A stretch of 64,000 nucleotides of DNA from an uncultured Gammaproteobacteria bacterium (lineage in GTDB: Bacteria > Patescibacteriota > Patescibacteriia > CAZGFX01): assembly GCA_964524845.1 (NCBI GenBank), contig CAZGFX010000002.1, positions 227,428 through 291,427 of the forward strand, given 5' to 3'. A program made the translations under genes and the position numbers. The notes beneath the pieces are model-generated. The model worked only from the letters and a program-made list of their open reading frames with translations. It was not told where the DNA came from and did not search any database. Of this stretch, positions 4,401 to 61,432 are shown one piece after another; position 1 is the first letter of the stretch; every line of letters begins with the position of its first letter.

Positions 4401-5354
4401 TTATTTGCGTTTCTGTGCGGCTCGCTTTACCCATACTGACAAAATCGTTCTAACGACAAACAATGCAATAATCACGATAAGAATCGCTCGCCATGAAATG
4501 ACCCAGAAACTAACTTCGGAATTAAATGTTTTTCCTTGGGTTCCCCATGCTGTATCAAGCTTTGCGGTATATCTTCCGAAACCGAAATTCTTGAATTCAG
4601 CCTTCACCTCATCAACAAAAGATAAATCTGTTAGCTCTTTCTCACGAGTGAAAATCTTGCGAATTGAGTTCGGATATACGAGCGCGCTCGACTCATTTGC
4701 ATTAAGTACACGAGCAACTCCTCCGAACATGTTTTTCACCTCGACTACGCCCTCGGGTTTGTAGTGGACATTTCCAGTGTTTGCGTAACGTGTCATGAAG
4801 TTAACAGGAAAACGATTATAAAACTTCTTCGCAGTAGAAAACTCAACGACTTCTCCTGCTTCCGTCGCCTCACCAGCAACTCTCATCGCGATAATAGTAC
4901 CAACTTGTGCCTCAATTCCAGCTCCGGAACCCTCTATCTTACCTTCAAATTTTTCTTTAGATAAAACAATTGCATAATGACCGCCAGGAGTAGCATCAGA
5001 AGGAACTGTTATTTTAAAATTAACATCTTTTATTTCTTTTGGTTCAAATTTTATTTCTGTTACTGGAAATGATATCCAGTTTTGTAAATCATTTACTGTT
5101 TTATCAAGCTCTTCAAAAACAGGACTTCCTGTCTCGTTCGCATTAGGAGAAAACGCTTTCACAGATAAAGACACTGTGATCGGCACATCTTTTTCGTTTT
5201 GAAGCTTAATAACCCTTTCAAGCACGGACCCTGGATCTGTGTTTTCTTCTAATAGAGTAGTCTTCATAGTCAGCGCATTGGCGCCAGATCCCAAGAAAGC
5301 AAACACAATCATCGTCAATAACCCAATAATATAATATCTAAACTTTTTATTCAT
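4401..5354 (-). CDS. cell-surface protein with N-terminal signal and C-terminal TM anchor plus basic tail (paralogous architecture to 3464..4381)
   Basis: Signal YYIIGLLTMIVFAFLGSGANA. C-terminal WRAILIVIIALFVVRTILSVWVKRAAQKRK. Sits 20 bp from the neighbouring anchored protein gene. Confidence 0.5.
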   Translation of the reverse strand: MNKKFRYYIIGLLTMIVFAFLGSGANALTMKTTLLEENTDPGSVLERVIKLQNEKDVPITVSLSVKAFSPNANETGSPVFEELDKTVNDLQNWISFPVTEIKFEPKEIKDVNFKITVPSDATPGGHYAIVLSKEKFEGKIEGSGAGIEAQVGTIIAMRVAGEATEAGEVVEFSTAKKFYNRFPVNFMTRYANTGNVHYKPEGVVEVKNMFGGVARVLNANESSALVYPNSIRKIFTREKELTDLSFVDEVKAEFKNFGFGRYTAKLDTAWGTQGKTFNSEVSFWVISWRAILIVIIALFVVRTILSVWVKRAAQKRK

Positions 5355-5430
5355 AAAATAATATAACTAATCAATTACACAGTATTCTATCCGTAGCAAA
5401 AACCACAGATAGAATTTGTAAAATCGACGA

Positions 5431-5955
5431 TTAATTAACAGTGATTGTATATTCAACAATATGACTGTAACTTCCTGCTGGAGTGCTATTTCCTGCACGA
5501 GCACCGTGCTCAACAGTTATATCACCTTGGTACACTGGTCCCGCAGATGTTGCGAAATCACCAGCTATTGTAGGTACTCCCTGATATGCTGAACCATAAG
5601 AACCTGACATTGTGAAATCAGCTGTTGTACCATAAAAACCATAATCATTATCACCAAGAGCTCCTGTTGCATCGTCAAAACTATCTGTTCCATCTGTAAA
5701 TGCAGTATCAGCATCAGCCTGAATAGTAGCCCCATCAGTATCATTGGTAGTTCCAACTATTGTATAATTACATGTTGTGCTACTACCAACAGGGATTGTA
5801 CCCAAATCGCAAGTAGGAGATGCGATACTTAGAGCTGTATTATCAGATACAGTACCACTTACAGTAACACTGTCGCTCGTTTGAGCGAACGCCTGTGGCA
5901 CGACAAGCATCGATGCCAAGGTTAACATCAAAATTTCTGAAAGAAATTTCTTCAT
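5431..5955 (-). CDS. small secreted Thr/Gly/Asp-rich protein
   Basis: Signal peptide MKKFLSEILMLTLASMLVVPQAFAQ. Low-complexity T/S/G/D-rich mature region. First gene of the minus-strand surface-protein cluster. Confidence 0.5.
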   Translation of the reverse strand: MKKFLSEILMLTLASMLVVPQAFAQTSDSVTVSGTVSDNTALSIASPTCDLGTIPVGSSTTCNYTIVGTTNDTDGATIQADADTAFTDGTDSFDDATGALGDNDYGFYGTTADFTMSGSYGSAYQGVPTIAGDFATSAGPVYQGDITVEHGARAGNSTPAGSYSHIVEYTITVN

Positions 5956-11998: not shown

Positions 11999-12073
11999 TG
12001 GTGGGTCCAGTGGGGGTCGAACCCACGACCAATAGCTTAAAAGGCTACTGCTCTACCACTGAGCTATAGACCC
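11999..12073 (-). tRNA. tRNA-Lys (anticodon UUU), CCA encoded
   Basis: Reverse complement GGGTCTATAGCTCAGTGGTAGAGCAGTAGCCTTTTAAGCTATTGGTCGTGGGTTCGACCCCCACTGGACCCACCA folds as a cloverleaf. Acceptor GGGTCTA/TGGACCC, anticodon loop CTTTTAA, T-loop TTCGACC. Confidence 0.85.
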
Positions 12074-17607: not shown

Positions 17608-18327
17608 TTACAACTTTCCAAGGAAAACTCGCTCAAAAATATCTCCGTGCAAAACCTTATCCCCAGGTCCTTCAGTAACAACACGACCCTTGTCTAGAAT
17701 ATATGCCCTATCAACAACAGACAAGAGAGACTTAATATTGTGTTCAACAATCATAATTGCCGTATTGTGTCGTTCGTTTATTTCTTTTATTTTTTCAAAA
17801 ATTTCTTTCACAATCTTCGGAGCAAGACCAAGTGTCGGTTCATCAAGCAAAAGAACTTTCGGATCGCTCATAAGTCCGCGAGCAAGCGCAACCATTTGTT
17901 GTTGTCCTCCCGAAAGCGTTCCTGATGATTGTTTCAGTCTTGATTTTAATATTGGAAACAACTCCATAACTTCTTCAAACTTAATATCCGCGCCTCTTTT
18001 GTCATGAAGTACGAAACCACCTAATTCTATATTTTCTCGAACCGAAAGTGATGGAAAAACCCTTCTCCCCTGCGGTACAAAAGAGATCCCCAAGCGTACC
18101 ATATGATGAGGAATCGGATCAATCTGCTTTTCGTGCCAAAATACTTTTCCTGAATCGATCGGAGCAATTCCAAAAACAGCTTTCAAAATTGTACTTTTCC
18201 CAGCGCCATTAGGACCCATGACAGCAACGATCTCTCCTTCGTCAATAGCAACACTAGCACCATCAAGCGCCTTAACTCCTCCGTAATGTACGGAAATATC
18301 TTTTAGCTGTAATAATGTTTCTTTCAT
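17608..18327 (-). CDS. livF: branched-chain amino acid ABC transporter ATP-binding protein (LivF-type)
   Basis: Walker A GPNGAGKST. ABC signature LSGGQQQ. Walker B LLLDEP. Confidence 0.85.
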   Translation of the reverse strand: MKETLLQLKDISVHYGGVKALDGASVAIDEGEIVAVMGPNGAGKSTILKAVFGIAPIDSGKVFWHEKQIDPIPHHMVRLGISFVPQGRRVFPSLSVRENIELGGFVLHDKRGADIKFEEVMELFPILKSRLKQSSGTLSGGQQQMVALARGLMSDPKVLLLDEPTLGLAPKIVKEIFEKIKEINERHNTAIMIVEHNIKSLLSVVDRAYILDKGRVVTEGPGDKVLHGDIFERVFLGKL

Positions 18328-18389
18328 TTACCCTGTGAAATAAAATTTTTTATTATCGTTCGAACTTGTTTATTGTGTCACCACGAATG

Positions 18390-18606
18390 AATATTATCAT
18401 CATAAGCTTACATTGTCATCCTGAACAATGTCATCCTGAACTAACTTTGTCATCCTGAACTAACTTTGTCATCCTGAACTCGTTTCAGGATCTATGTATC
18501 TGTTTCAGGATCTACCTTGATACATTGTATTTTAGTAAAATTTATTTCTCATATTATCAAAAGTTACACGGTAGATTCTGAAACGAGTTCAGAATGACAG
18601 TGTTGT
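18390..18606. repeat. MITE-like element copy A (repeat family 1)
   Basis: Tandem caatgtcatcctgaa units. Core flanked by TIRs gtcatcctgaactcgtttcag ... ctgaaacgagttcagaatgac. Near-identical core at 26110-26285 and 61231-61432. Confidence 0.6.
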
Positions 18607-18646
18607 ATAATTCGCAATTTGTAATTCGCAATCCGTAATTCAACAC

Positions 18647-19874: not shown

Positions 19875-20150
19875 CACTTTTGTCAATAACCAAAAACCCC
19901 CTGTATAAAACAAGTTTTTCACTAATTTTCCTCGTAATTTCCCCTTCTCGTAATTCGTTCACCCTGTGAAATAAGATTCGAAACAGGCTGAGGTTTTGTT
20001 TATAAATTAATCAAAAATAATTGATTAAACATATATAATAGTAAAAATTAATCCGAATCTTAATTTCAGTATGAAATTATTTCACAGGGTAAATTCGCAA
20101 TCCGTAATTCTTCTCCCTTCTCGTAATTTCCTATCTCGTAATTCTTAATT
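19875..20150. repeat. non-autonomous copy of the TIR element (repeat family 2) with flanking ctcgtaatt-type short tandem repeats
   Basis: TIRs ttcaccctgtgaaataa (19958-19974) and ttatttcacagggtaaa (20077-20093). Upstream ccaaaaacc..tgtataaaacaagttt shared with the 24790 copy. Confidence 0.55.
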
Positions 20151-24789: not shown

Positions 24790-25180
24790 GCCAAAAAGCA
24801 ACTACCAAAAAACCTTGTATAAAACAAGTTTCCACTAATCCTTCTCGTAATTTTCCCTTCTCGTAATTCGTTCACCCTGTGAAATAAGATTTGAGCCTTC
24901 TTTTAATAAACATCTTACCATAAAAAGTCTTTAAATACTTTTCTCTTCGTGTGGCATCCTGTTGATTAAGACAAACCTCAAAATAAATAAGTTTTAAAGG
25001 TCTTCTCTCTTTTGTTGATGGTATTAACCCTTTATTATGTCGCTCAAATCTTAACTTCAAATTTTTTGTATACCCAGTATACATCTTATTATCTTTTTTA
25101 CTCTTTAATACATATGTATAAAACATATAATAATTGTTTTATATAAAAAATTTGGAGTTATTTCACAGGGTAAATTTATA
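24790..25180. mobile_element. TIR-bounded element carrying a GIY-YIG nuclease gene (repeat family 2, putative autonomous copy)
   Basis: Inverted repeats ttcaccctgtgaaataa (24871-24887) and ttatttcacagggtaaa (25158-25174) bracket the GIY-YIG ORF. Same TIRs and flank occur without the ORF at 19875-20150. Solo TIRs at 18328, 26043 and 56985. Confidence 0.5.
24872..25126 (-). CDS. GIY-YIG nuclease family protein (YhbQ/UPF0213-like, 84 aa)
   Basis: MFYTYVLKSKKDNKMYTGYTKNLKLRFERHNKG matches the GIY-x10-YIG...R...E..H core. Conserved downstream E in LIYFE. Confidence 0.8.
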   Translation of the reverse strand: MFYTYVLKSKKDNKMYTGYTKNLKLRFERHNKGLIPSTKERRPLKLIYFEVCLNQQDATRREKYLKTFYGKMFIKRRLKSYFTG

Positions 25181-26042
25181 ATTTATATTCTCCTTTAAGT
25201 CCTTGTGGGCGATATATCATAAGAAAAACAAGAAGTGCTCCATATACCACCTGTCGCATCTGTGCCGCTATATCGGTTGGAAATCCAACAAAACGCATAA
25301 TTTCCGGTAACAAAATAAGAAACAAGGCACCAAGAAGCGATCCTTCTAAATTAGCAAGACCGCCTAAAATAATTATCGCTAATATAAAAATAGATTCCGG
25401 AAGCGCGAATGTCGACGGATCAATAAATGTAATATAAGAAGCAAAAAGAGCTCCGGCAATTGCGGCCATACCCGCCGATATCATAAAAATAACAAGTTTA
25501 TACTGCAGTGTGTTATATCCGAAAACTTGTAACGCTTTTTCGTCATCACGAATAGCTTTGAGAGCGCGTCCAAACGATGACTTGGTAACATATCGCGCAC
25601 ATATATATACAATGATCATGAATAACGCACTTAAAACAAGAAACGTCAGATTATCACGAAAAACAAATCCGAATATCTCCGGTCTTCCTATTCCTGGAAT
25701 ACCGAGCGGGCCTCGAGTAAGATCCTGCCAGTTCAATAAAATACTAAACACAATAACATTGAAACCAAACGATGCAAGAGCATAATAATCTGATTCAAAT
25801 TTGCTCATAACGAATCCAATTAGAAAGCTCACCGCCATCGAGAGAATGATACTGAATATAACAGCAACAAAAAAATTAACACCGAGCTCAGTCATCAGAA
25901 TTGCCGATGCATACGCACCAACACCATAAAAAGCCGCGTGCGTTACTGACAAAAGCCCTGTATATCCTACGACCAAATTCAAACTTATACCAAGTATGGC
26001 ATATATTGTGAAAAGTATCGCTAAATGTATTAAATATTCCAT
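25176..26042 (-). CDS. livM: branched-chain amino acid ABC transporter permease (LivM-type)
   Basis: 8-10 TM helices. Permease family motifs (GLLSVTHAAFYGVGAY). Confidence 0.8.
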   Translation of the reverse strand: MEYLIHLAILFTIYAILGISLNLVVGYTGLLSVTHAAFYGVGAYASAILMTELGVNFFVAVIFSIILSMAVSFLIGFVMSKFESDYYALASFGFNVIVFSILLNWQDLTRGPLGIPGIGRPEIFGFVFRDNLTFLVLSALFMIIVYICARYVTKSSFGRALKAIRDDEKALQVFGYNTLQYKLVIFMISAGMAAIAGALFASYITFIDPSTFALPESIFILAIIILGGLANLEGSLLGALFLILLPEIMRFVGFPTDIAAQMRQVVYGALLVFLMIYRPQGLKGEYKL

Positions 26043-26109
26043 TTACCCTGTGAAATAAGGTTTTTTTAATTCGTAATTCAAACTTTTTTATTGTACTACA
26101 TTAAAAGAA

Positions 26110-26285
26110 CATTATCATCTTAGATTGACCTTGTCATGTTGAACATTGTCATCCTGAACTGACCCTGTCATCCTGAACTCGTTTCAGGATCTACCTTGAT
26201 ACAATGTTTTCTAGGAAAACTTATAACACATATTATCAAAAGTTACACGGCAGATGCTGAAACGAGTTCAGCATGACATTGTGGC
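26110..26285. repeat. MITE-like element copy B (repeat family 1), followed by cgtaattc short tandem repeats to 26343
   Basis: Same TIRs and core as 18390-18606. Occupies the livH-livM intergenic spacer. Confidence 0.6.
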
Positions 26286-26343
26286 GTAATTCGTAATTAT
26301 TCTTCCCTCTCGTAATTTTCCCTTCTCGTAATTCGTAATTGTA

Positions 26344-33383: not shown

Positions 33384-33480
33384 ATATATAGTATTAAAGT
33401 GAACGCGTGCATAATAGCAAAACCAAGCCAAAAGTCAATAGTGAAAAAGCATTTCAACTAATGGTCGAAGCGAAGTAAAA

Positions 33481-33620
33481 TATATAGGATGAGACCTCTT
33501 CCTGACATACGTCAGGACAGGCTCCTCCGGTCGAGGTGACAATTTCCGCAAGGCGGGATCCCGCTTTGCGGTGGGTTGAGCCAAGTGAATGTGCCTGTAC
33601 TGAGCAGAACGAATGTGCCA
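33481..33620. repeat. GC-rich palindromic repeat unit (family 3), copy 1, in the rplU 5' leader region
   Basis: ggatgagacctcttcctgacatacgtcaggacaggc...tcgaggtgacaa, shared with 56711-56812. Strong palindrome ccgcaaggcggga/tcccgctttgcgg. Far more GC-rich than the surroundings. Confidence 0.5.
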
Positions 33621-49297: not shown

Positions 49298-49495
49298 GGT
49301 TGTTAATTAAAAATTTCTTACTGTTAGGAATCAAGTGTGCCAAAAAAGGACACTTAGATCAACTCTATGAGTGCGGAAAACCGCTTAACATAGTGTTTTT
49401 TCTTTTGAAACAAAAGAAAAGACGATAAACGTCAGAAGCATTGTAACAAAAATTTGATTTTATGCAAGGGTATAACCTCTTGAAAACTTCGATTG

Positions 49496-51604
49496 TTACG
49501 ATACTTTTGCCGTACCTCTCTTTTTTTGAATCTCGGCGAGAACGTTTGTTGGAACCTGATCATATCGCTCAAACTCCATAGTATAAGTACCTCGACCTTG
49601 CGTCATAGAACGAAGCGTTGTGGAATAACCAAACATCGAAGCAAGAGGTACTGTGGCTGAAATAACCTTATTTCCTCCTCTGTCTCCCATCGAACCAATT
49701 TGCCCTCTTTTCGAATTAAGATCACCAACAACAACGCCCATATAATCTTCCGGTGTAATAACTTCAATTTTCATCATTGGCTCGAGAAGTATAGGACGAC
49801 TCTTCATAAAAGCGTCTTTAAAACCAATAGATCCGGCAATTTTAAACGCATATTCACTCGAATCAACATCGTGATACGAACCGTCAAATACTGTGGCCTT
49901 AACATTAATAATTGGATATCCGGCAAGTTGTCCGGAATTAAGTGTTTCTTCAATACCCTTTCCAACTGCAGGAATATATTCTCTTGGAATAGACCCTCCT
50001 TTAATAGCATCAACGAATTCAAATGTTTTCTTTTTATCTTCTGAATCAGCATCATGAACGAGTGGCTCGAGTTTGATCCAACAGTGCCCATACTGACCAC
50101 GACCTCCTGATTGTTTTACATACTTTCCTTCTGCTTCAGCTGAAGAAGTGATTGTTTCACGATATGAAACTTCTGGTGCACCAACGTTTGCGTCAACACC
50201 AAACTCTCTCTTCATACGATCAACAATAATTTCAAGATGAAGTTCTCCCATACCGGCAATAATAGTCTGACTTGATTCTGGGTCAACTTTTACACTAAAT
50301 GTAGGATCTTCTTCCGCAAGTTTCTGAAGTGCAAATCCCATTTTCTCTTGATCGTTTTTTGTTTTGGCCTCTACGGCAATATGAATAACTGGTTCAGGAA
50401 ATGTAATTGATTCGAGAATAATCTGTTTATCAAGATCACAAAGCGTATGCCCGGTGAAAGTATTTTTGAGACCAATAACAGCAGCTATATCTCCTGATGG
50501 AACCTCATCAACTTCTTCTCTTTGGTTTGCATGCATACGAACAATACGACCAATACGTTCTTTGTTTCCTGTTGATGAGTTAAGTACGTATGAACCCGAT
50601 TTCAAAACACCTGAGTACACACGAACGAAAGTGAGACGACCAACAAAAGGATCTGTTGCAACTTTAAAAGCAAGAGCAGCTAGTGGCGCATCATCGTCAA
50701 CTTTAATTGGGTTTGTAATAGACGGGTCAGATACGTTGTGTCCGATCGGAGCCGCGATATCAAGCGGTGAAGGCAAATAATAATCAACCGCATCCAAAAG
50801 AAGTTGAACTCCTTTATTTTTAAGTGCCGAACCGCACAAAATCGGAATAAATTGATATGTAATAACACCTTTTCGAATAGCTTGTCTGATCTCATCTATT
50901 GTAAGAGATTCTCCTCCTAGATATTTTTCAAGAAGATGTTCATCAACGGAAGCAACAGCTTCAAGCATCTCTCCTCTATATTTTTTTACTTTTTCAATCA
51001 TGTCTGACGGGATATCTTCTTCTTTGCAAGTACCCATATCATCAATAAACATAAATGCGCGCTCAGTAACAAGATCAATAATACCCTTAAAATTATCTTC
51101 TATACCTATAGGAAGCTGAATTGGATGAGCACTTGTTGTAAGTTTTGAACGAATATCATCTATATCATAATAGAAATCGGCTCCTGTACGATCAAGTTTA
51201 TTTACAAAACAAAGACGTGGAACTTTGTACTTTTCTGCCTGACGCCATACTGTTTCTGTTTGTGGTTCAACACCCGAAACACCGTCAAAAACAACAACTC
51301 CTCCATCAAGAACACGAAGAGATCGCTCTACCTCAACTGTGAAATCTACATGTCCTGGGGTATCGATAACATTAATAACTTTATCTTTCCAAAAACACGT
51401 CGTCGCAGCAGACGTGATTGTGATACCACGTTCCTGCTCTTGTTCCATCCAATCCATTACGGCCTCTCCTTCATGCACCTCACCAATCTTATGAGTTTTT
51501 CCAGTATAAAATAAAATACGCTCGGACACCGTTGTCTTACCCGCATCAATGTGTGCAATGATACCAATATTACGCACTCTTTCCAAAGGATACTTCCTAG
51601 GCAT
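49496..51604 (-). CDS. fusA: elongation factor G
   Basis: [14 protein letters not shown] and NKLD motifs. Five-domain length. Track ORF over-extended; ATG at 51604 precedes the conserved [15 protein letters not shown]. Confidence 0.95.
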
Positions 51605-55544: not shown

Positions 55545-56195
55545 TCAAAATACAGACGGCAAGAAACTGAGAACAAAATTAATCGCTCCACTGAAAAGTC
55601 TTGAGAAAAGACTTATTCCAACAAAACGATCTACCAATATAAGTCCGAGAATAATCCAAGGACCATTCTTTTCAAAACTGCGTTTGAATGAGTCAAGTGA
55701 TGATGGAAGATAATCGAGTAATACTCGAGATCCATCAAGAGGTGGAATTGGAATAAGATTAAAGAGCGCGAGCACTAGATTTATAACAATGAGAAATACT
55801 ATAAATTGAGCGAGCATATTATCAACAGTAATAATTTCAAAATGGAAAAGTGCTCGCGCGAGTATTATGAATACAACAACAGCAATTAGGTTTGCCGCAG
55901 GCCCGGCCAAAGCCACTAGACTCGGGCCATGCTTTCCTGTTCGAAGTTTGTTAGGATCATATGGCACGGGTTTGGCCCAACCAAATCCCAAAAAAACAAA
56001 CATAAGAAAACCCCAAGGATCTATATGAGCAAGAGGATTCATAGTTAGACGACCATAATATTCAGCTGTTTTATCTCCTTGTATATAACCCAGAAGCGCA
56101 TGAGCATATTCATGAATCGTCATAGCAAAAACGATTGCGATCATCCAGATCACAAATAAAATGGGGTTTGTTTCCAATAATCCAAGTGGCGACAT
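55545..56195 (-). CDS. peptidase M50 family (short site-2 protease, SpoIVFB-like, no PDZ)
   Basis: HEYAHAL zinc motif in TM1. 6 TM. LDG motif region. Confidence 0.75.
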   Translation of the reverse strand: MSPLGLLETNPILFVIWMIAIVFAMTIHEYAHALLGYIQGDKTAEYYGRLTMNPLAHIDPWGFLMFVFLGFGWAKPVPYDPNKLRTGKHGPSLVALAGPAANLIAVVVFIILARALFHFEIITVDNMLAQFIVFLIVINLVLALFNLIPIPPLDGSRVLLDYLPSSLDSFKRSFEKNGPWIILGLILVDRFVGISLFSRLFSGAINFVLSFLPSVF

Positions 56196-56257
56196 CTTGA
56201 CTCTATTATATAATTACTCTATTATAATACCATTAATTCGAGGTTTGAAGAAAGTCT

Positions 56258-56488
56258 ATGGCAAAAAAATCAGAGCTTACAGGCAAAAAACCGCGTACGA
56301 TGAATCAGCGGAGCCACTCAATGAACGCAACAAAGCGCGTACAGGGTATTAATTTACAGACGATTCGGGTCGAGGGAAAAAAAATATGCGCTACCGCACG
56401 CGAGATAAAAGCGATAAAGAAAATGCTTGCTGAGAATATTCCATTCTCAAAAATCAAGAAAATGTATAACAAGGCTGTTATAGCATAA
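56258..56488 (+). CDS. rpmB: 50S ribosomal protein L28
   Basis: MAKKSELTGKKP..NQRSHSMNATKR L28 pattern. 76 aa. Confidence 0.85.
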   Translation: MAKKSELTGKKPRTMNQRSHSMNATKRVQGINLQTIRVEGKKICATAREIKAIKKMLAENIPFSKIKKMYNKAVIA

Positions 56489-56508
56489 TCGCAACACGTA
56501 CACGCCAC

Positions 56509-56538
56509 AGACAGGATCTCTCCTGTCTTTTTGTTTTG
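56509..56538 (+). terminator. rho-independent terminator after rpmB
   Basis: agacagga-tctc-tcctgtct 8-bp stem followed by TTTTTGTTTTG. Confidence 0.6.
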
Positions 56539-56710
56539 CAATAATTAGAAACGTGTCGAAGACACGTGTCAAAGAAATGAAAAACAACCCCGCAAAGCGA
56601 TAGCGTGCGGGGTATGTAGAGATATTTTTGGATGAAAAGGATAAGCGACTTGTTCGAGAGAACATAAAAATCATATGAATTATAATGCGAACAGAAGTGC
56701 TCGCGTTAAA

Positions 56711-56812
56711 GTGGATGAGACCTCTCCCTGACATGCGTCAGGGCAAGCATATTCGTTCGAGGTGACAAAGTTGGTCGAGGTGACAAGTCCCGCCGAGCGT
56801 CAGCGATGACGG
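56711..56812. repeat. GC-rich palindromic repeat unit (family 3), copy 2
   Basis: ggatgagacctctccctgacatgcgtcagggcaagc...tcgaggtgacaa, shared with 33481-33620. Confidence 0.5.
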
Positions 56813-56820
56813 GATATTAA

Positions 56821-56984
56821 CAATGTCATCCTGAACAATGTCATCCTGAATAATGCCATCCTGAACAATGTCATCCTGAACAATGTCATCCTGAACAATG
56901 TCATCCTGAATTTATTTCAGGATCTATGTATCTGTTTCAGGATCTGTGTATCTATTTCAGGATCTGTGTATCTGTTTCAGGATG
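56821..56984. repeat. tandem arrays of 6 x 15 bp (caatgtcatcctgaa) then 3.5 x 20 bp (tttcaggatctgtgtatctg); arms mutually complementary
   Basis: Direct reading. Units are the same motifs that form the family-1 MITE termini. Followed by a solo family-2 TIR at 56985-57005. Confidence 0.7.
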
Positions 56985-57529
56985 AAATTATTTCACAGGG
57001 TAAATTCATAATTTTTCTAAAATCAAAAACCCCGTAGCAAAAAATAACTAGATAAATATGCTACGGGGTTCAACCTATACCTATATACACGTCTGAGATA
57101 CGTATTACTATCTATACGAATAAGCTTTTGGATGAGGATTTGGGATTCGATCAGTTAGCCTCCATCTTTTTATGTGTACAAAATCTTTTCGACATTGGAA
57201 GTTTTCGGATCTTATGAAATAAGTTCTCGGACCTCCTTATGTGCCTAAAAACGATTTTGTAACGTGCCTATATATCGCCCGCATAGGAAGTTTAGTACAC
57301 GAACGAAACAATGGCATAAGTAAATATTGCTTGAAAAGTAACCACGGATTCCAAATGCACTCATCCACTATAGGTTTACGCCCACTTACAAAAAATTACA
57401 AATGAGAAAATCACCGTTTTGTACCCTGTTATGCACTTCTTATTTTTCCGCTAAAATAACATCTTTTAAAACAAGTTTATAATCATTATTTAACGAATAA
57501 AAAAAACAAACAGGAGAATTTAGTAGGGT

Positions 57530-57690
57530 GATTATCCCCGGGAAATACCGAGGCACCGGTATAAGGCAGTGTTAGCCGCCTGATACTGGCGATCGCCTCA
57601 TGTGGCCGCAAAGCATGGTCTAAGACCACACAAACTTTAAGCCGCCAATCAACGATGTTGTAGAGAAATCACAGTTCTAAATCAAATCCT
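57530..57690. ncRNA. candidate structured non-coding RNA (unidentified)
   Basis: Locally GC-rich, hairpin-rich segment inside a ~960-bp region (56735-57692) with no ORF >=60 aa on either strand. Identity not established. Confidence 0.2.
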
Positions 57691-57912
57691 GTTTGCACTT
57701 AAAGTATACACCTTCCAGTCTGTTTTTTAAGATCGGGAAAATCCCTATTTTCAGTCATTGTTCAAAAGTTATCCACCTTGTGTTTTTTTTTTGCTTAAAT
57801 ACACGCTTTTCCAATATAAAAACTCGAAAAGTCTCTGTTTTGACCAATTTATATAAATCCGTTATCATCTACCATACTATTATCATATTAATTAAGTTAA
57901 AAAATCGAGTAT

Positions 57913-58506
57913 ATGAAAACAGAGAGAACACTTGTGATTATAAAACCAGATGGAGTACAACGTGGATTAATGGGAGAAATAATAAGACGAATAGAACAAA
58001 CGGGCTTAAAATTTGTTGCATTTAAATTTCTCGTTCCAACAGAGGAACAGTGCTGGACACATTACAACAAGGCTGACGCGTGGTTTGAAGAAAAAGGTGC
58101 ACGAATAATGAAAAACAAACAAGAACTTGGACTTCCTGTTGAAAAAACCGCACGAGAATATGGACAAGATATTATACGAAACAATGTTAAATTTTTTACA
58201 TCCGGACCGCTTCTTGCCATGGTTGTCGAAGGAAATAAATCAGTTGGTGTTGTGAAAAAATTAGTCGGAACTACTGAACCACTCACATCTGATGTTGGAA
58301 CAATCCGTGGAGATCTCACAATTGATTCGTACGACCTTGCGGAACTAGATGGAAGACCGGTGAGAAATCTCGTTCATTGCACAGATGATCCAAAAGAATC
58401 TGACAGAGAAATATCAATCTGGTTCAAACCGGAAGAGATGATCAATTATTATCTTATTGGAGAAAAAATCCTTTACGACATACAACTCGAGGGATTGTTA
58501 AAATAA
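57913..58506 (+). CDS. ndk: nucleoside diphosphate kinase-like protein (197 aa; extended)
   Basis: N-terminal RTLVIIKPDGVQRGLMGEIIRRIE is the canonical NDK fold start. Catalytic His in NLVHCTDD (usually NxxHGSD). Extra ~50 aa. Confidence 0.7.
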   Translation: MKTERTLVIIKPDGVQRGLMGEIIRRIEQTGLKFVAFKFLVPTEEQCWTHYNKADAWFEEKGARIMKNKQELGLPVEKTAREYGQDIIRNNVKFFTSGPLLAMVVEGNKSVGVVKKLVGTTEPLTSDVGTIRGDLTIDSYDLAELDGRPVRNLVHCTDDPKESDREISIWFKPEEMINYYLIGEKILYDIQLEGLLK

Positions 58507-58518
58507 AAAAATACCAAA

Positions 58519-58550
58519 AAGATACGTTTTCAACCGTATCTTTTTTATTT
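58519..58550. terminator. bidirectional terminator between ndk (+) and comEC (-)
   Basis: aagatacg/cgtatctt 8-bp stem with U-runs on both sides. Confidence 0.55.
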
Positions 58551-58595
58551 TCCAATAACTTTAATCCATCAGTAAAAACTTATTTTTAATTGTTC

Positions 58596-59456
58596 TTAAA
58601 AATGTAGCTCATACCTGTCACTATATATTCTAAAAACAATCGTTCCTTTTTCATCTGTGCGTAATATTTTTACTCCGCGCTTAAGAAGACGTTCAACTGC
58701 TTCAGCATGAGGATGACCATATGAATTTCCAATTCCAACTGATATTACAGCATACTCTGGCTTCGTCAAAGAAAGAAACTCATCTGATGTTGATCCCTTG
58801 CTTCCATGATGAGCCACTTTCAATATATCAACATCGGGAATAAGCGAATTATCAATGTTCGACTCTTCCGTAATCGGCAAATCACCTGTCAGAAGAATTT
58901 TTGAGTCTCCATATTCAACGAGCACGACAATTGAGAGATCATTCAAATCCTCCGGGCGGCGCGGCGGCGGACTTTTTGGATGAAGCACTGTCAAACGAAC
59001 TCCGTCAATCTCATACACATTACCTGCATATGGGGCAATAATACGAGCACCTTCTTCTTTTAATGCATCTTCATATACAGAATAAGACGATGAGCCATCT
59101 CCATCGGTGTTTTCAAGAATATTCTTTACATTATATCTATCCAAAACTTCTATAAGCCCTATATAATGATCCGTATGAGGATGTGTCAATATCATCAAAT
59201 CAATATCTCTATCATATAAAGACATCTTCCTTCCTATACTTTGTATACAACGAAGATCAGGACCTCCATCAATAAGAATACTTTTATGATGAGGGGTTAT
59301 TATTAATGTTCCGTCGCCATTTCCTACATTAAAAAATATAATCTCGGTATATGAGCGATTTAGTGTAAAATGAGCATGAACCGCCGCGCCGCCCGCACAG
59401 AGTAAGCTCAAAATACATATGATAATTTTCTTTTTATTAAAATGAAACATATGCAT
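58596..59456 (-). CDS. comEC: ComEC C-terminal metallo-beta-lactamase domain protein (separate ORF)
   Basis: HPHTDHYIGL MBL motif, plus a preceding TM segment. Overlaps the upstream ComEC N-terminal ORF out of frame. Confidence 0.65.
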   Translation of the reverse strand: MHMFHFNKKKIIICILSLLCAGGAAVHAHFTLNRSYTEIIFFNVGNGDGTLIITPHHKSILIDGGPDLRCIQSIGRKMSLYDRDIDLMILTHPHTDHYIGLIEVLDRYNVKNILENTDGDGSSSYSVYEDALKEEGARIIAPYAGNVYEIDGVRLTVLHPKSPPPRRPEDLNDLSIVVLVEYGDSKILLTGDLPITEESNIDNSLIPDVDILKVAHHGSKGSTSDEFLSLTKPEYAVISVGIGNSYGHPHAEAVERLLKRGVKILRTDEKGTIVFRIYSDRYELHF

Positions 59457-60894
59457 ATGGTATCGCGGCAAATGCTTCGGCCACGCGAATTACATATTCG
59501 AGAAAAAGCCACGTAAGCCATCCGTTTAATGCTCCGACTGTACCGAAAACACTGCCAAAAATAATGGTAAAAAATCCTGTAAGCATTGCGTATGGGATAA
59601 CAGGAAGCACAAGAAGATTGACTATTGGCGCTATCAGAGAAATTCCTTTAAACGCATATACTGTTATCGGGAGTGTAGCTATTGTAGCGGAAAGTGTTGA
59701 AACGAATGATTCACGAATTCCAAACATTTCCGGCACCCATCCACACACTTTAATAACGTAAGGACTGAGATATATCAGCCCTATTGTCGCAAGAAACGAG
59801 AGATGAAATCCCATGTCATATATGATAAACGGATTCATTGCAAGCATAAGAAAAGCGGAGCATATGAGTAACATAAATGGATATACCGATCGTCCTCCAT
59901 ACTTCGCGATAAGTGCGATCACACCCATCACCGCTGCACGAATAACAGAGGCCTGAGCTCCTGTAATACACACATAAAAAATTATACCGAGCATAACTAG
60001 CCACAACGCATATTTTCTATGAACACCAAAATACGGCAGAATAGCGAGAAATGCCACACCAATAATCGTAATGTTATATCCTGACACGGCAACAATATGC
60101 GTTATTCCAACGCGTCGAAATGTTTCCGACACGTCGTCAGGAATTCCTTGTTTTGCTCCCCACAAAATCCCTGCGGCAAGCGATGCATGTGGTTCAATCA
60201 GACGAGAAGTAAGTTCTATAATGAGAATTTTTTTTACTTTTAATATGTTTGAATACAAAAAAGATCCTTTTCCCTCATTTATTTTTTTAACAGAACGAAC
60301 AATATAACATACACCTGTTATGTTGTGGCGCATCAAAAAATGATAATAATCAAAATCCTCTATCATACCAGCCTTCTCGAGCGGACACTTAACAGAAAGT
60401 TCGTCTCCGTATGTAAAACGAGGGTACAGAGGCAGTGTTATGAGTGTTTTTTCTTTTTCTGATATTCTTTCACTGATATCTTTGCTTATGATGTGCCCGA
60501 TCGTGTATTTTACTTTATCAGTACGCACATCCGGTTCATCAACAACAACACCCGTAAATGAAACAAGGTGTCGTTCTCCGTCAGCAATAAACCGAGCAAT
60601 ATTTCCGTGCTCCATGTGTTCCACATGAATTGAATATCTCCACACTCCACATGCCGTGCCAAATAAAAAAAGAAAACATAATGCCGACACCGATAAAACA
60701 AATTGTTTTTTTGAATAAAACTTGCCAAATCGACAAAAAATTATCGCGTACGATATACTTGTTATAATAATTATTGTGTTTAATGTATCCGGAATAACAA
60801 AATATGGCGCAATAAACACACCAAGTACAAAACCGCTTCCAACAGATCGCACAAGCCATGTTTTTGATATATAGTCACGAGATATTATTTTCAT
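59437..60894 (-). CDS. comEC: ComEC/Rec2 N-terminal (DUF4131 + competence channel domain), lacking MBL domain
   Basis: Multi-TM. Competence-domain motifs (ITHIVAVSGYNITI). Ends 20-35 bp inside the next ORF. Confidence 0.7.
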   Translation of the reverse strand: MKIISRDYISKTWLVRSVGSGFVLGVFIAPYFVIPDTLNTIIIITSISYAIIFCRFGKFYSKKQFVLSVSALCFLFLFGTACGVWRYSIHVEHMEHGNIARFIADGERHLVSFTGVVVDEPDVRTDKVKYTIGHIISKDISERISEKEKTLITLPLYPRFTYGDELSVKCPLEKAGMIEDFDYYHFLMRHNITGVCYIVRSVKKINEGKGSFLYSNILKVKKILIIELTSRLIEPHASLAAGILWGAKQGIPDDVSETFRRVGITHIVAVSGYNITIIGVAFLAILPYFGVHRKYALWLVMLGIIFYVCITGAQASVIRAAVMGVIALIAKYGGRSVYPFMLLICSAFLMLAMNPFIIYDMGFHLSFLATIGLIYLSPYVIKVCGWVPEMFGIRESFVSTLSATIATLPITVYAFKGISLIAPIVNLLVLPVIPYAMLTGFFTIIFGSVFGTVGALNGWLTWLFLEYVIRVAEAFAAIPYAYVSF

Positions 60895-60915
60895 GCGGGT
60901 ATTTTTCTACTGATA

Positions 60916-60924
60916 TTATCCACA
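60916..60924. promoter_or_regulatory. perfect DnaA box TTATCCACA
   Basis: Direct reading. Confidence 0.4.
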
Positions 60925-60948
60925 TTACAAAACACCCTCAAGCGCCGT

Positions 60949-61110
60949 CGGTGGATAAACTAGCGCCGCCTGCCCTTCTCTTGCGAAGCAAGAGATAGGG
61001 TCGGTGGATAAACTAGCGCCGCCTGCCCTTCTCTTGCGAAGCAAGAGATAGGGTCGGTGGATAAACTAGCGCCGCCTGCCCCCTAGCGAAGCGAGGGACC
61101 TTACTGAGCG
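60949..61110. repeat. 3 x 53-bp GC-rich tandem repeat, each unit with a DnaA-box-like GGTGGATAA and a ctcttgc-gaa-gcaagag hairpin
   Basis: Units begin at 60949, 61002 and 61055 (third degenerate). 20-bp sub-repeats ccttactgagcgaagcgagg x2 at 61097-61135. Confidence 0.7.
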
Positions 61111-61189
61111 AAGCGAGGAACCTTACTGAGCGAAGCAAGAGATAGGGTCTGTTGATAAACCCTCTCACCATACACAAAACAAACCTCAT

Positions 61190-61207
61190 ATATCCACTTG
61201 TGGATAA
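61190..61207. promoter_or_regulatory. head-to-head DnaA-box palindrome ATATCCACT / TGTGGATAA
   Basis: tatccacttgtggata perfect inverted repeat. TGTGGATAA (61199-61207) matches the consensus exactly. TGTTGATAA at 61150-58. Confidence 0.4.
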
Positions 61208-61230
61208 AAAAACAGCTCGTAAAGCTGTTT

Positions 61231-61432
61231 ATGTCATCCTGAACCATGTCATCCTGAATTTATTTCAGGATCTATATATCTGTTTCAGAATCTTCCTTGA
61301 TACATTGTGTATTATGTCATTCTGAACTTGTTTCAGAATCTTCCTTGATACATTGTTTTCTAGGAAAACTTATATTTCATATTATTAAAAGTTACACTGC
61401 AGATGCTGAAACGAGTTCGGCATAACGCAATG
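61231..61432. repeat. MITE-like element copy C (repeat family 1, with internal 40-bp duplication)
   Basis: Same termini and core as 18390-18606 and 26110-26285. Confidence 0.6.

Follow-up and report, generated by a model that had tools for sequence, protein, structure and literature searches.

A candidate lineage-specific small RNA in the repeat-laden gap between rpmB and ndk of a Patescibacteria genome

Introduction

Novel non-coding RNAs (ncRNAs) are reportedly nominated in the Breaker laboratory from GC content and intergenic region length, as GC-rich islands in AT-rich genomes, and such candidates are said to be accepted only once their homologues show covariation. To our knowledge, the ncRNAs of Patescibacteria have hardly been explored, apart from rRNA, tRNA and the introns of these. 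Here, we analyzed a 64-kb stretch of contig CAZGFX010000002.1 (assembly GCA_964524845.1, positions 227,428 to 291,427), hereafter called the window, from a Patescibacteria genome (candidate phyla radiation, Parcubacteria-like) with a GC content of 37%. Between the genes rpmB and ndk, the window holds a structured element at 57499-57696, which we read, with a probability of roughly 0.4, as an orphan, lineage-specific, stand-alone small RNA of about 190-200 nt that would be transcribed from the minus strand, divergently from ndk.

The element resembles candidates of the Breaker type in that it is an island of about 53% GC within a long intergenic region of a 37%-GC genome and folds far beyond shuffled sequences, but it differs from them in having no homologue in any collection searched. 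Another system for comparison is 6S RNA (RF00013), a rod-like molecule made of a closing stem, a large open central bubble and an apical stem, which binds the sigma-70 holoenzyme and templates the synthesis of product RNA (pRNA). With a length of about 190 nt, paired ends in a long interrupted helix and an apparently independent transcription unit, the element may recall 6S RNA, whereas its predicted core is a multi-hairpin junction and the 6S model gives no match at E-values up to 10. If expressed, it would represent one more lineage-specific RNA in very small genomes, where retained non-coding elements are likely to be useful. As a single orphan sequence from one metagenome-assembled genome, its value is that of a lead.

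Results and Discussion

The fold of the element and its proposed transcription

The original prediction had placed a candidate ncRNA gene in a region of some 960 bp, 56735-57692, said to be free of open reading frames (ORFs) and to contain a GC-richer structured segment near its right end. No ORF of at least 60 aa was present in this region according to the ORF list, and the compositional claim was confirmed, with 100-nt windows of 0.49-0.54 GC at 57500-57650 against 0.26-0.39 on both flanks. The string quoted for the segment, ccccgggaaataccgaggcaccgg, was located at 57537-57560.

On the minus strand, the sequence 57498-57700 is predicted to fold with a minimum free energy (MFE) of -73.7 kcal/mol (z = -6.19), and none of 200 dinucleotide shuffles folded as well. 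The MFE structure is identical to the centroid and consists of 69 pairs (33 GC, 28 AU and 8 GU) with a mean pair probability of 0.86 and per-helix values of 0.53-0.99. When the sequence was folded within four larger contexts of 300, 400, 600 and 760 nt, all 69 pairs were retained. The parts of the predicted structure are as follows:

57499-57696, minus strand: candidate RNA, consisting of a 191-nt folding domain (57506-57696) and a U8 tail (57499-57506)
57696-57687/57515-57506, minus strand: helix P1 of the predicted terminal helix, 10 bp
57683-57677/57523-57517, minus strand: helix P2 of the predicted terminal helix, 7 bp
57672-57662/57539-57528, minus strand: helix P3 of the predicted terminal helix, 11 bp
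57660-57650, minus strand: predicted hairpin H1, in the junction enclosed by P1-P3
57647-57603, minus strand: predicted hairpin H2, 45 nt, in the same junction
57599-57550, minus strand: predicted hairpin H3, 50 nt, in the same junction
57549-57540, minus strand: predicted hairpin H4, in the same junction

A stability beyond that of composition-matched random sequence and a well-defined fold, as calculated here for 57499-57696, are what would be expected of a structured ncRNA. In a GC-corrected sliding scan with 200-nt windows, the element was the third most structured minus-strand locus of the window, outranked only by the 26.1-kb copy of a repeat and by a locus near 5.3-5.5 kb. Its GC content, measured in 130-nt non-coding windows, was 0.53, compared with a non-coding mean of 0.37 (sd 0.08), and its longest ORF comprises 47 aa without a Pfam match. 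Thus, the part of the proposed ncRNA gene that stands is a strongly and autonomously folding GC-rich domain of about 200 of the 960 bp, while the idea of a single RNA spanning the whole region does not.

In the mechanism that we propose, a sigma-70-like promoter (TTAAAA-16-TATACT, 57730-57703) would start the transcript at about G57696, which is the first base of P1. The 5′ and 3′ ends would pair in a long terminal helix that is interrupted between its segments of 10, 7 and 11 bp and closes a junction with two long GC-rich hairpins (H2 and H3) and two small ones. The U8 run, whose first U (57506) is the last base paired in the domain, would then terminate the transcript directly past the helix in the fashion of an intrinsic terminator. 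In a genome of 37% GC, an RNA with GC-rich arms and with both ends buried in a helix would more likely be a stable scaffold or protein-binding RNA than a base-pairing regulator.

Choice of strand and the possibility of an ndk leader

The following promoter-like sites were found around the element by a consensus scan:

57703-57730, minus strand: promoter-like site TTAAAA-16 nt-TATACT, 9/12 matches
57456-57483, plus strand: rival promoter-like site ATAACA-16 nt-TATAAT, 10/12 matches, which would transcribe the domain toward ndk
57840-57868, plus strand: ndk promoter-like site, 10/12 matches, 150 nt downstream of the domain
57700-57912, both strands: promoter-like sites pointing in both directions

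We tentatively assigned the element to the minus strand from the normalized z score, the G-U pairs (8 on the minus strand versus 2 on the plus strand), the U8 run, which follows the terminal helix on the minus strand only, and the minus-strand promoter-like site. The call is tentative because the minus-strand promoter match is weak and a better match on the plus strand (10/12) points the other way.

That better match also bears on a different explanation, in which the element regulates ndk in cis as a riboswitch-like or protein-binding leader on the plus strand, transcribed from 57456-57483 with a 5′ untranslated region of about 420 nt. The plus-strand fold of 57498-57700 is likewise significant (-61.7 kcal/mol, z = -4.2), and the first gene that follows on the plus strand is ndk. 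However, ndk has a promoter-like site of its own past the domain, the plus strand offers no expression platform (neither a terminator nor sequestration of the Shine-Dalgarno sequence), the minus strand folds better after composition normalization, and no riboswitch or leader family was matched even at E = 10. Moreover, the gap upstream of ndk in 75 GTDB relatives typically measures about 80 bp and contains neither a conserved leader nor a known RNA. Together, these points make this explanation improbable. A search of Rfam with 23 of the relatives' ndk loci yielded only tRNAs and one L10 leader, and with gaps of such length a conserved ndk leader or a known RNA beside ndk was rejected.

Comparison with known RNA families

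RNase P RNA, tmRNA and 6S RNA had been offered in the original prediction as classes of suitable size, with the signal recognition particle RNA and riboswitches also considered. None of them was matched by Rfam 15 or ARAGORN, even at E-values up to 10 with a 241-nt query, and a domain of about 190 nt is too small for either RNase P RNA or tmRNA. At gathering thresholds, Rfam 15 recognized only a tRNA-Lys gene at 12002-12073 in the whole window. In E-value mode, with 56400-58000 and the 241-nt query 57480-57720, the latter run with lax filters, the best matches scored 12-23 bits against thresholds of 39-60 (E 0.39-10). ARAGORN detected no tRNA or tmRNA in the gap with default settings, and nothing in 57000-57900 with introns of up to 1000 nt allowed (-i) or at the 80% threshold (-m). 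Firmer than the RNA candidate itself is the negative result that most of the ORF-free kilobase consists of repeat DNA at a rearrangement point and conceals no universal RNA gene within the reach of Rfam 15 and ARAGORN. A string resembling conserved region I of RNase P RNA, AAGGAGGUCCGAG at 57238-57226, was dropped because the AT-rich DNA around it is unstructured and separate from the folded domain, and because the RNase P models gave no match.

A very divergent universal RNA, most plausibly a 6S RNA beyond the reach of the Rfam models in Patescibacteria, would fit the length, the long terminal helix and the stand-alone arrangement in outline, and no paper in the literature collection searched mentions 6S RNA alongside the candidate phyla radiation. 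Nevertheless, the 6S model remained silent at E = 10 on the 241-nt query, and in both the MFE and the centroid structure a terminal helix closes a four-hairpin junction (pair probabilities 0.5-0.99), where a 6S RNA would be a rod opened by a large central bubble. A housekeeping RNA should also be conserved, yet no homologue was found in the relatives' loci, a weak argument given that these loci cover ndk neighbourhoods only. We regard a hidden 6S RNA as highly improbable.

Patescibacteria tRNA genes with group I introns are known to elude standard tools (PMC13011429). The element resembles these genes in being missed by Rfam and ARAGORN and in occupying a position where relatives carry tRNAs, but it contains no tRNA exons, and the group I intron model RF00028 gave no match to it at E-values up to 10. 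The idea of an intron-bearing tRNA, taken from that report, was dropped because the intron mode of ARAGORN found no exons. About 190 nt minus the exons is also too short for a group I intron.

The locus in related genomes

The Ndk protein is at most 68% identical to those of GTDB species representatives, which carry labels such as Falkowbacteria, Moranbacteria, Magasanikbacteria and similar. The genes of its three closest relatives are arranged as ComEC, MBL, (aspartyl-tRNA synthetase, AspRS), ndk, gap, M50, rpsL, rpsG, fusA and tuf, and the equivalent site has a different content there, with tRNAs, rpmB, a CYTH gene and AspRS. The gap of one relative (L086) contains tRNA-Pro(CGG), a tRNA with an ambiguous anticodon, tRNA-Val, a reverse tRNA-Pro(GGG) and rpmB. 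In the genome studied here, ndk is inverted relative to the closest relatives (L082-L088), and tRNAs of the L086 type are absent from the locus. From this comparison, we place the rpmB-ndk gap at a rearrangement breakpoint.

The element has the same position and orientation as the tRNA cluster of L086, an RNA-gene slot. It might accordingly have taken over the tRNA slot by ndk and founded a new class of stable four-way-junction RNA of about 190 nt, closed end to end and with a protein-binding or housekeeping role, in a deep-branching and poorly sampled Patescibacteria lineage whose regulatory repertoire is minimal; we consider this extension of the small-RNA reading rather unlikely.

Within L086 itself (1940-2060), part of the anticodon-arm region of the reverse tRNA-Pro(GGG) is directly duplicated ahead of the gene (CCACCCTAAGGATGCG versus CCACCCCAAGGATGCG), and GC-rich inverted flanks lie on either side. 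The site resembles a scar left by integration or duplication at a tRNA gene.

Composition of the rpmB-ndk gap

The true gene-to-gene gap runs from rpmB to ndk at 56489-57912 (1424 bp) and is the longest non-coding run of the window. Two ORFs bordering the region of the original prediction, one of 95 aa ending at 56734 and one of at least 60 aa starting at 57693, appear in the ORF list and are spurious, the second overlapping ndk. The gap is a mosaic, composed mostly of dispersed repeats and terminator hairpins, and not one RNA gene. Its flanking genes and the features of its left part are as follows:

55545-56195, minus strand: Peptidase_M50 gene, flanking gene
56258-56488, plus strand: rpmB (L28), Pfam 3.4e-09
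56509-56538, plus strand: rpmB intrinsic terminator found by the terminator scan, an 8-bp stem AGACAGGA/TCCTGTCT followed by TTTTTGTTTTG
56713-56768, no strand assigned: GC-rich dispersed repeat GGATGAGACCTCTYCCTGACATRCGTCAGG...GTCGAGGTGACAA with an internal hairpin; second copy at 33487-33542, upstream of rplU
56819-56910, plus strand: tandem array of 6.1 copies of the 15-bp unit AACAATGTCATCCTG (TRF score 170; repeat family D1)
56899-56927, no strand assigned: complete hairpin TGTCATCCTGAA-TTTA-TTTCAGGATCTAT resembling repetitive extragenic palindromic (REP) sequences, at the junction between the 15-bp and 20-bp arrays
56915-56983, plus strand: tandem array of 3.5 copies of the 20-bp unit TTTCAGGATCTGTGTATCTG (TRF score 124; family D2, inverted repeats I1-I6)
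56975-57014, no strand assigned: short dispersed motif TTATTTCACAGGGTAAAT (self-BLAST, 96-100% identity)
57913-58506, plus strand: ndk (PF00334)

Beyond ndk, an MBL-fold gene and ComEC follow, both on the minus strand. Exact look-ups of rpmB and of the gene at the left edge returned nothing on record. The rpmB stop codon ends at 56488, and the terminator begins 21 nt later. Two further hairpins, ACGTGTCGAAGACACGT and CCCCGCAAAGCGATAGCGTGCGGGG, lie at 56551-56614, between this terminator and the repeats, and the sole Rfam match there was a chance-level Hrs1 (20.7 bits, E = 0.39).

The repeat at 56713-56768 and its copy at 33487-33542 are 84% identical across 56 nt (self-BLAST, E = 4e-11), and no match to it was found in IMG/VR. 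A weak tRNA-Ser at 56727-56814, called by ARAGORN only at the lowered threshold of 80%, falls on this dispersed repeat and was rejected. Further copies of the motif TTATTTCACAGGGTAAAT occur at 20064-20096, 25158-25184, 18326-18343 (minus strand) and 26041-26058 (minus strand), again with no match in IMG/VR.

A REP-like hairpin amplified by half-sites

The two tandem arrays are related through their half-sites, as every 15-bp copy bears the left half-site GTCATCCTGAA of the REP-like hairpin and every 20-bp copy bears the right half-site TTCAGGATCT, its complement. Where 1.09 matches to the motif GTCATCCTGAA would be expected in the window, 20 were found, and these cluster at four intergenic loci (18.4, 26.1, 56.9 and 61.2 kb). 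Self-BLAST related the 20-bp array to those at 18410-18513, 26124-26193 and 61231-61293. The copies at 18.4 and 26.1 kb are located within a liv-type ABC transporter cluster, between livG/livF and livH/livM. We conclude that GTCATCCTGAA...TTCAGGATCT is a REP-like palindromic repeat that was amplified here by half-sites.

Like REPs and bacterial interspersed mosaic elements (BIMEs), the arrays at 56819-56983 are built on a short palindrome, GTC-ATCCTGAA-loop-TTCAGGAT-CT, and occupy intergenic sites, with many copies in each genome that form clusters and in some cases tandem arrays. By contrast, the sequence is unrelated to enterobacterial REPs, the half-sites are separately amplified as 15-bp and 20-bp tandem arrays, and no REP-associated tyrosine transposase (RAYT) turned up, although none was searched for. 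Near-identical hairpins also span contigs of 39-57% GC, an unusual range compared with classical REPs. A 21-mer of the hairpin (CTCG-loop variant) was found in 10 IMG/VR contigs of this GC range, with at most 7 copies each and mostly in intergenic positions, and the complete hairpin at 56899-56927 is identical at 29/29 bases to two of the IMG/VR contigs (L094 and L096) and to 61247-61275 of the window. The class may thus be a widely travelling palindromic repeat. A sequence-based literature search with the hairpin returned chance primer matches only. Being nearly identical in unrelated environmental contigs, GTCATCCTGAA...TTCAGGATCT may merit a separate look.

In ten environmental "viral" contigs of IMG/VR (L092-L101), the hairpin GTCATCCTGAAC-N-GTTCAGGATCT is nearly unchanged and often precedes other motifs starting with GTCAT, such as TGTCATTTCGAGCG and TGTCATTGCGAGG. 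Between consecutive liv genes of the window (livG/livF and livH/livM), 18328-18646 and 26043-26343 are composite repeats of about 300 bp that combine GTCATCCTGAAC arrays, a long imperfect inverted repeat and short repeats of the TAATTCG type. Within these composites, the local hairpin ATNCTGAA...TTCAGN'AT stays paired between copies via paired changes (CC/GG, GC/GC and TC/GA).

Points against a small RNA and the possibility of a structured relic

Several results weigh against the small-RNA reading. No homologue of the element was detected by blastn or nhmmer against 90 loci, and none appeared in 80 GTDB ndk loci or in the contigs of the closest relatives. BLAST against phage and plasmid collections gave no match, nor did two exact patterns of the element in JGI metagenomes or two of its 18-mers in IMG/VR. 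A covariance model built from the single element sequence and its fold matched only itself over 0.83 Mb of the relatives' loci. The closest other Ndk among 5.8 billion proteins has 73% identity, and because the nearest organism is this distant, the absence of homologues says little. On the side of transcription, the 9/12 match of the minus-strand promoter is weak evidence alone, and only 4 promoter-like sites of this kind were found in 56200-58200, compared with 6.8 expected from shuffles. The raw energy difference between the strands (-12 kcal/mol) is ordinary for the window (mean -6.7, sd 7.7) and was rejected as strand evidence, and a putative terminator stem enclosing about 170 nt is atypical. 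Furthermore, the element is situated within a repeat-laden rearrangement scar, and the other GC-rich non-coding islands of the window are repeats at 56.7, 33.5 and 61.0 kb, the fourth being the tRNA-Lys gene. Since three of these four islands are repeats, GC-richness and structure are no proof of function in this genome.

The main rival reading is that the element is non-functional or selfish structured DNA, either a single-copy relic of a miniature inverted-repeat transposable element (MITE) or of REP type, or foreign DNA in the rearrangement scar, whose fold would reflect its origin from imperfect terminal inverted repeats and internal palindromes and not present-day selection. With about 190 bp of non-coding sequence, the element is similar to MITEs in carrying imperfect inverted repeats at both ends, CAAACAGGAG.../...ATCCTGTTTG, which correspond to helices P1 and P2. 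At least three dispersed repeat families occur within 300 bp (56713-57014), and the 26.1-kb repeat copy folds equally well, with a sliding-scan z of about -4.2 for either strand. The REP-like hairpin shared at 29/29 bases with contigs of about 50% GC indicates that such DNA moves between hosts, and the short ndk upstream gaps of the 75 relatives imply that the gap DNA is a lineage-specific gain.

Set against this, a second copy of the element was not found in the window, in the 9.5 kb past its right edge, or in JGI and IMG/VR, so that within the window and these 9.5 kb it is not multi-copy as a dispersed repeat or MITE would be. The short-read assembly is continuous across it; a Logan contig (L001), 100% identical to window 56978-60976, assembles through the element and breaks at the flanking repeats, at 56978 inside the 20-bp array and at 60976. 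No target-site duplication is visible in the flanks AATAAAAAAAA and CACTTAAAG, and the predicted interior consists of independent local hairpins round a junction, unlike the mirror-image halves of typical MITEs. GC-rich helices with 8 G-U pairs should also erode if unselected in an AT-biased genome. We judge a relic to be somewhat unlikely, though nearly as probable as a small RNA. Repeat debris had been named in the original prediction as the alternative for the whole region, and this holds for about 300 bp (56713-57014) of dispersed or REP-like repeats.

The minus-strand hairpin, the spacer and the possibility of a decayed gene

Between the repeats and the element, the gap contains two more features:

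57017-57070, minus strand: terminator-like hairpin with a 13-bp stem AACCCCGUAGCA... and a 19-nt loop, followed by UUUUUGAUUUU (arms of inverted repeat I9 100% complementary)
57075-57498, no strand assigned: AT-rich spacer of about 430 nt without significant structure and with no ORF above 54 aa

The perfect hairpin reported near 57030-57068 was recovered, with arms of 12 nt each at 57028-57039 and 57059-57070 that are 100% complementary. Its predicted fold at 57028-57070 (13 bp, -21.8 kcal/mol, z = -4.3) was not equalled by any of 200 shuffles, and a U-run follows on the minus strand only. A GC-rich stem directly before a U-tract is the pattern of an intrinsic terminator; the consensus terminator scan, limited to loops of 3-8 nt, missed it because the loop of 19 nt is larger than usual. 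The spacer folds with z scores of only -1.5 on the minus and -0.6 on the plus strand, and may be decayed DNA.

These features allow for an arrangement in which the element served a since-decayed minus-strand gene as its leader or attenuator, with a promoter, a structured leader ending in a U8 attenuator, a small gene in 57075-57498 and a terminator at 57028-57070. The strong terminator-like hairpin, 430 nt downstream, has nothing obvious to terminate. On the minus strand of the spacer, orphan Shine-Dalgarno-like sequences occur twice, as AAGGAGGT (57238-57231) and as GGAGG (57164-57160), each before an open frame of about 36-44 codons without a start codon. Yet there is no intact ORF, the small ORFs of the gap have no Pfam match, and tblastn with 4581 ORFs of the relatives' ndk loci gave chance-level similarity only. 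No known leader family was matched, and an intact GC-rich leader would need another explanation if the gene were dead. The chance that the element is such a leader is therefore slim. The proteins of the window itself (liv, ComEC and others) likewise showed chance-level tblastn similarity only, and a pseudogene or small protein in the gap was rejected on the Pfam and tblastn results.

Other loci of the window

The GC-rich non-coding island at 33465-33620 (0.53-0.55 GC), between a DUF192 gene and rplU (L21), contains the second copy of the 56-nt repeat together with further hairpins such as TCCGCAAGGCGGGATCCCGCTTTGCGG, and has no Rfam match.

The GC-rich non-coding block at 60907-61230 contains 2.5 copies of a 53-bp unit repeated perfectly in tandem (60947-61081), as well as a 22-bp repeat at 61085-61136. 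Seven DnaA-box-like sites occur within 300 bp, among them two perfect TTATCCACA boxes (60916 and 61199) and three TTATCCACC boxes that lie within the repeats. The block could be a DnaA-binding cluster or an origin of replication; as evidence against an oriC, the GC skew does not change sign there, and dnaA and dnaN are absent nearby.

After GC correction, 5261-5560 (minus strand) and 49321-49560 (plus strand) were among the most structured 200-nt windows. Neither has an Rfam match at gathering thresholds, and the latter is situated at the EF-G/EF-Tu junction.

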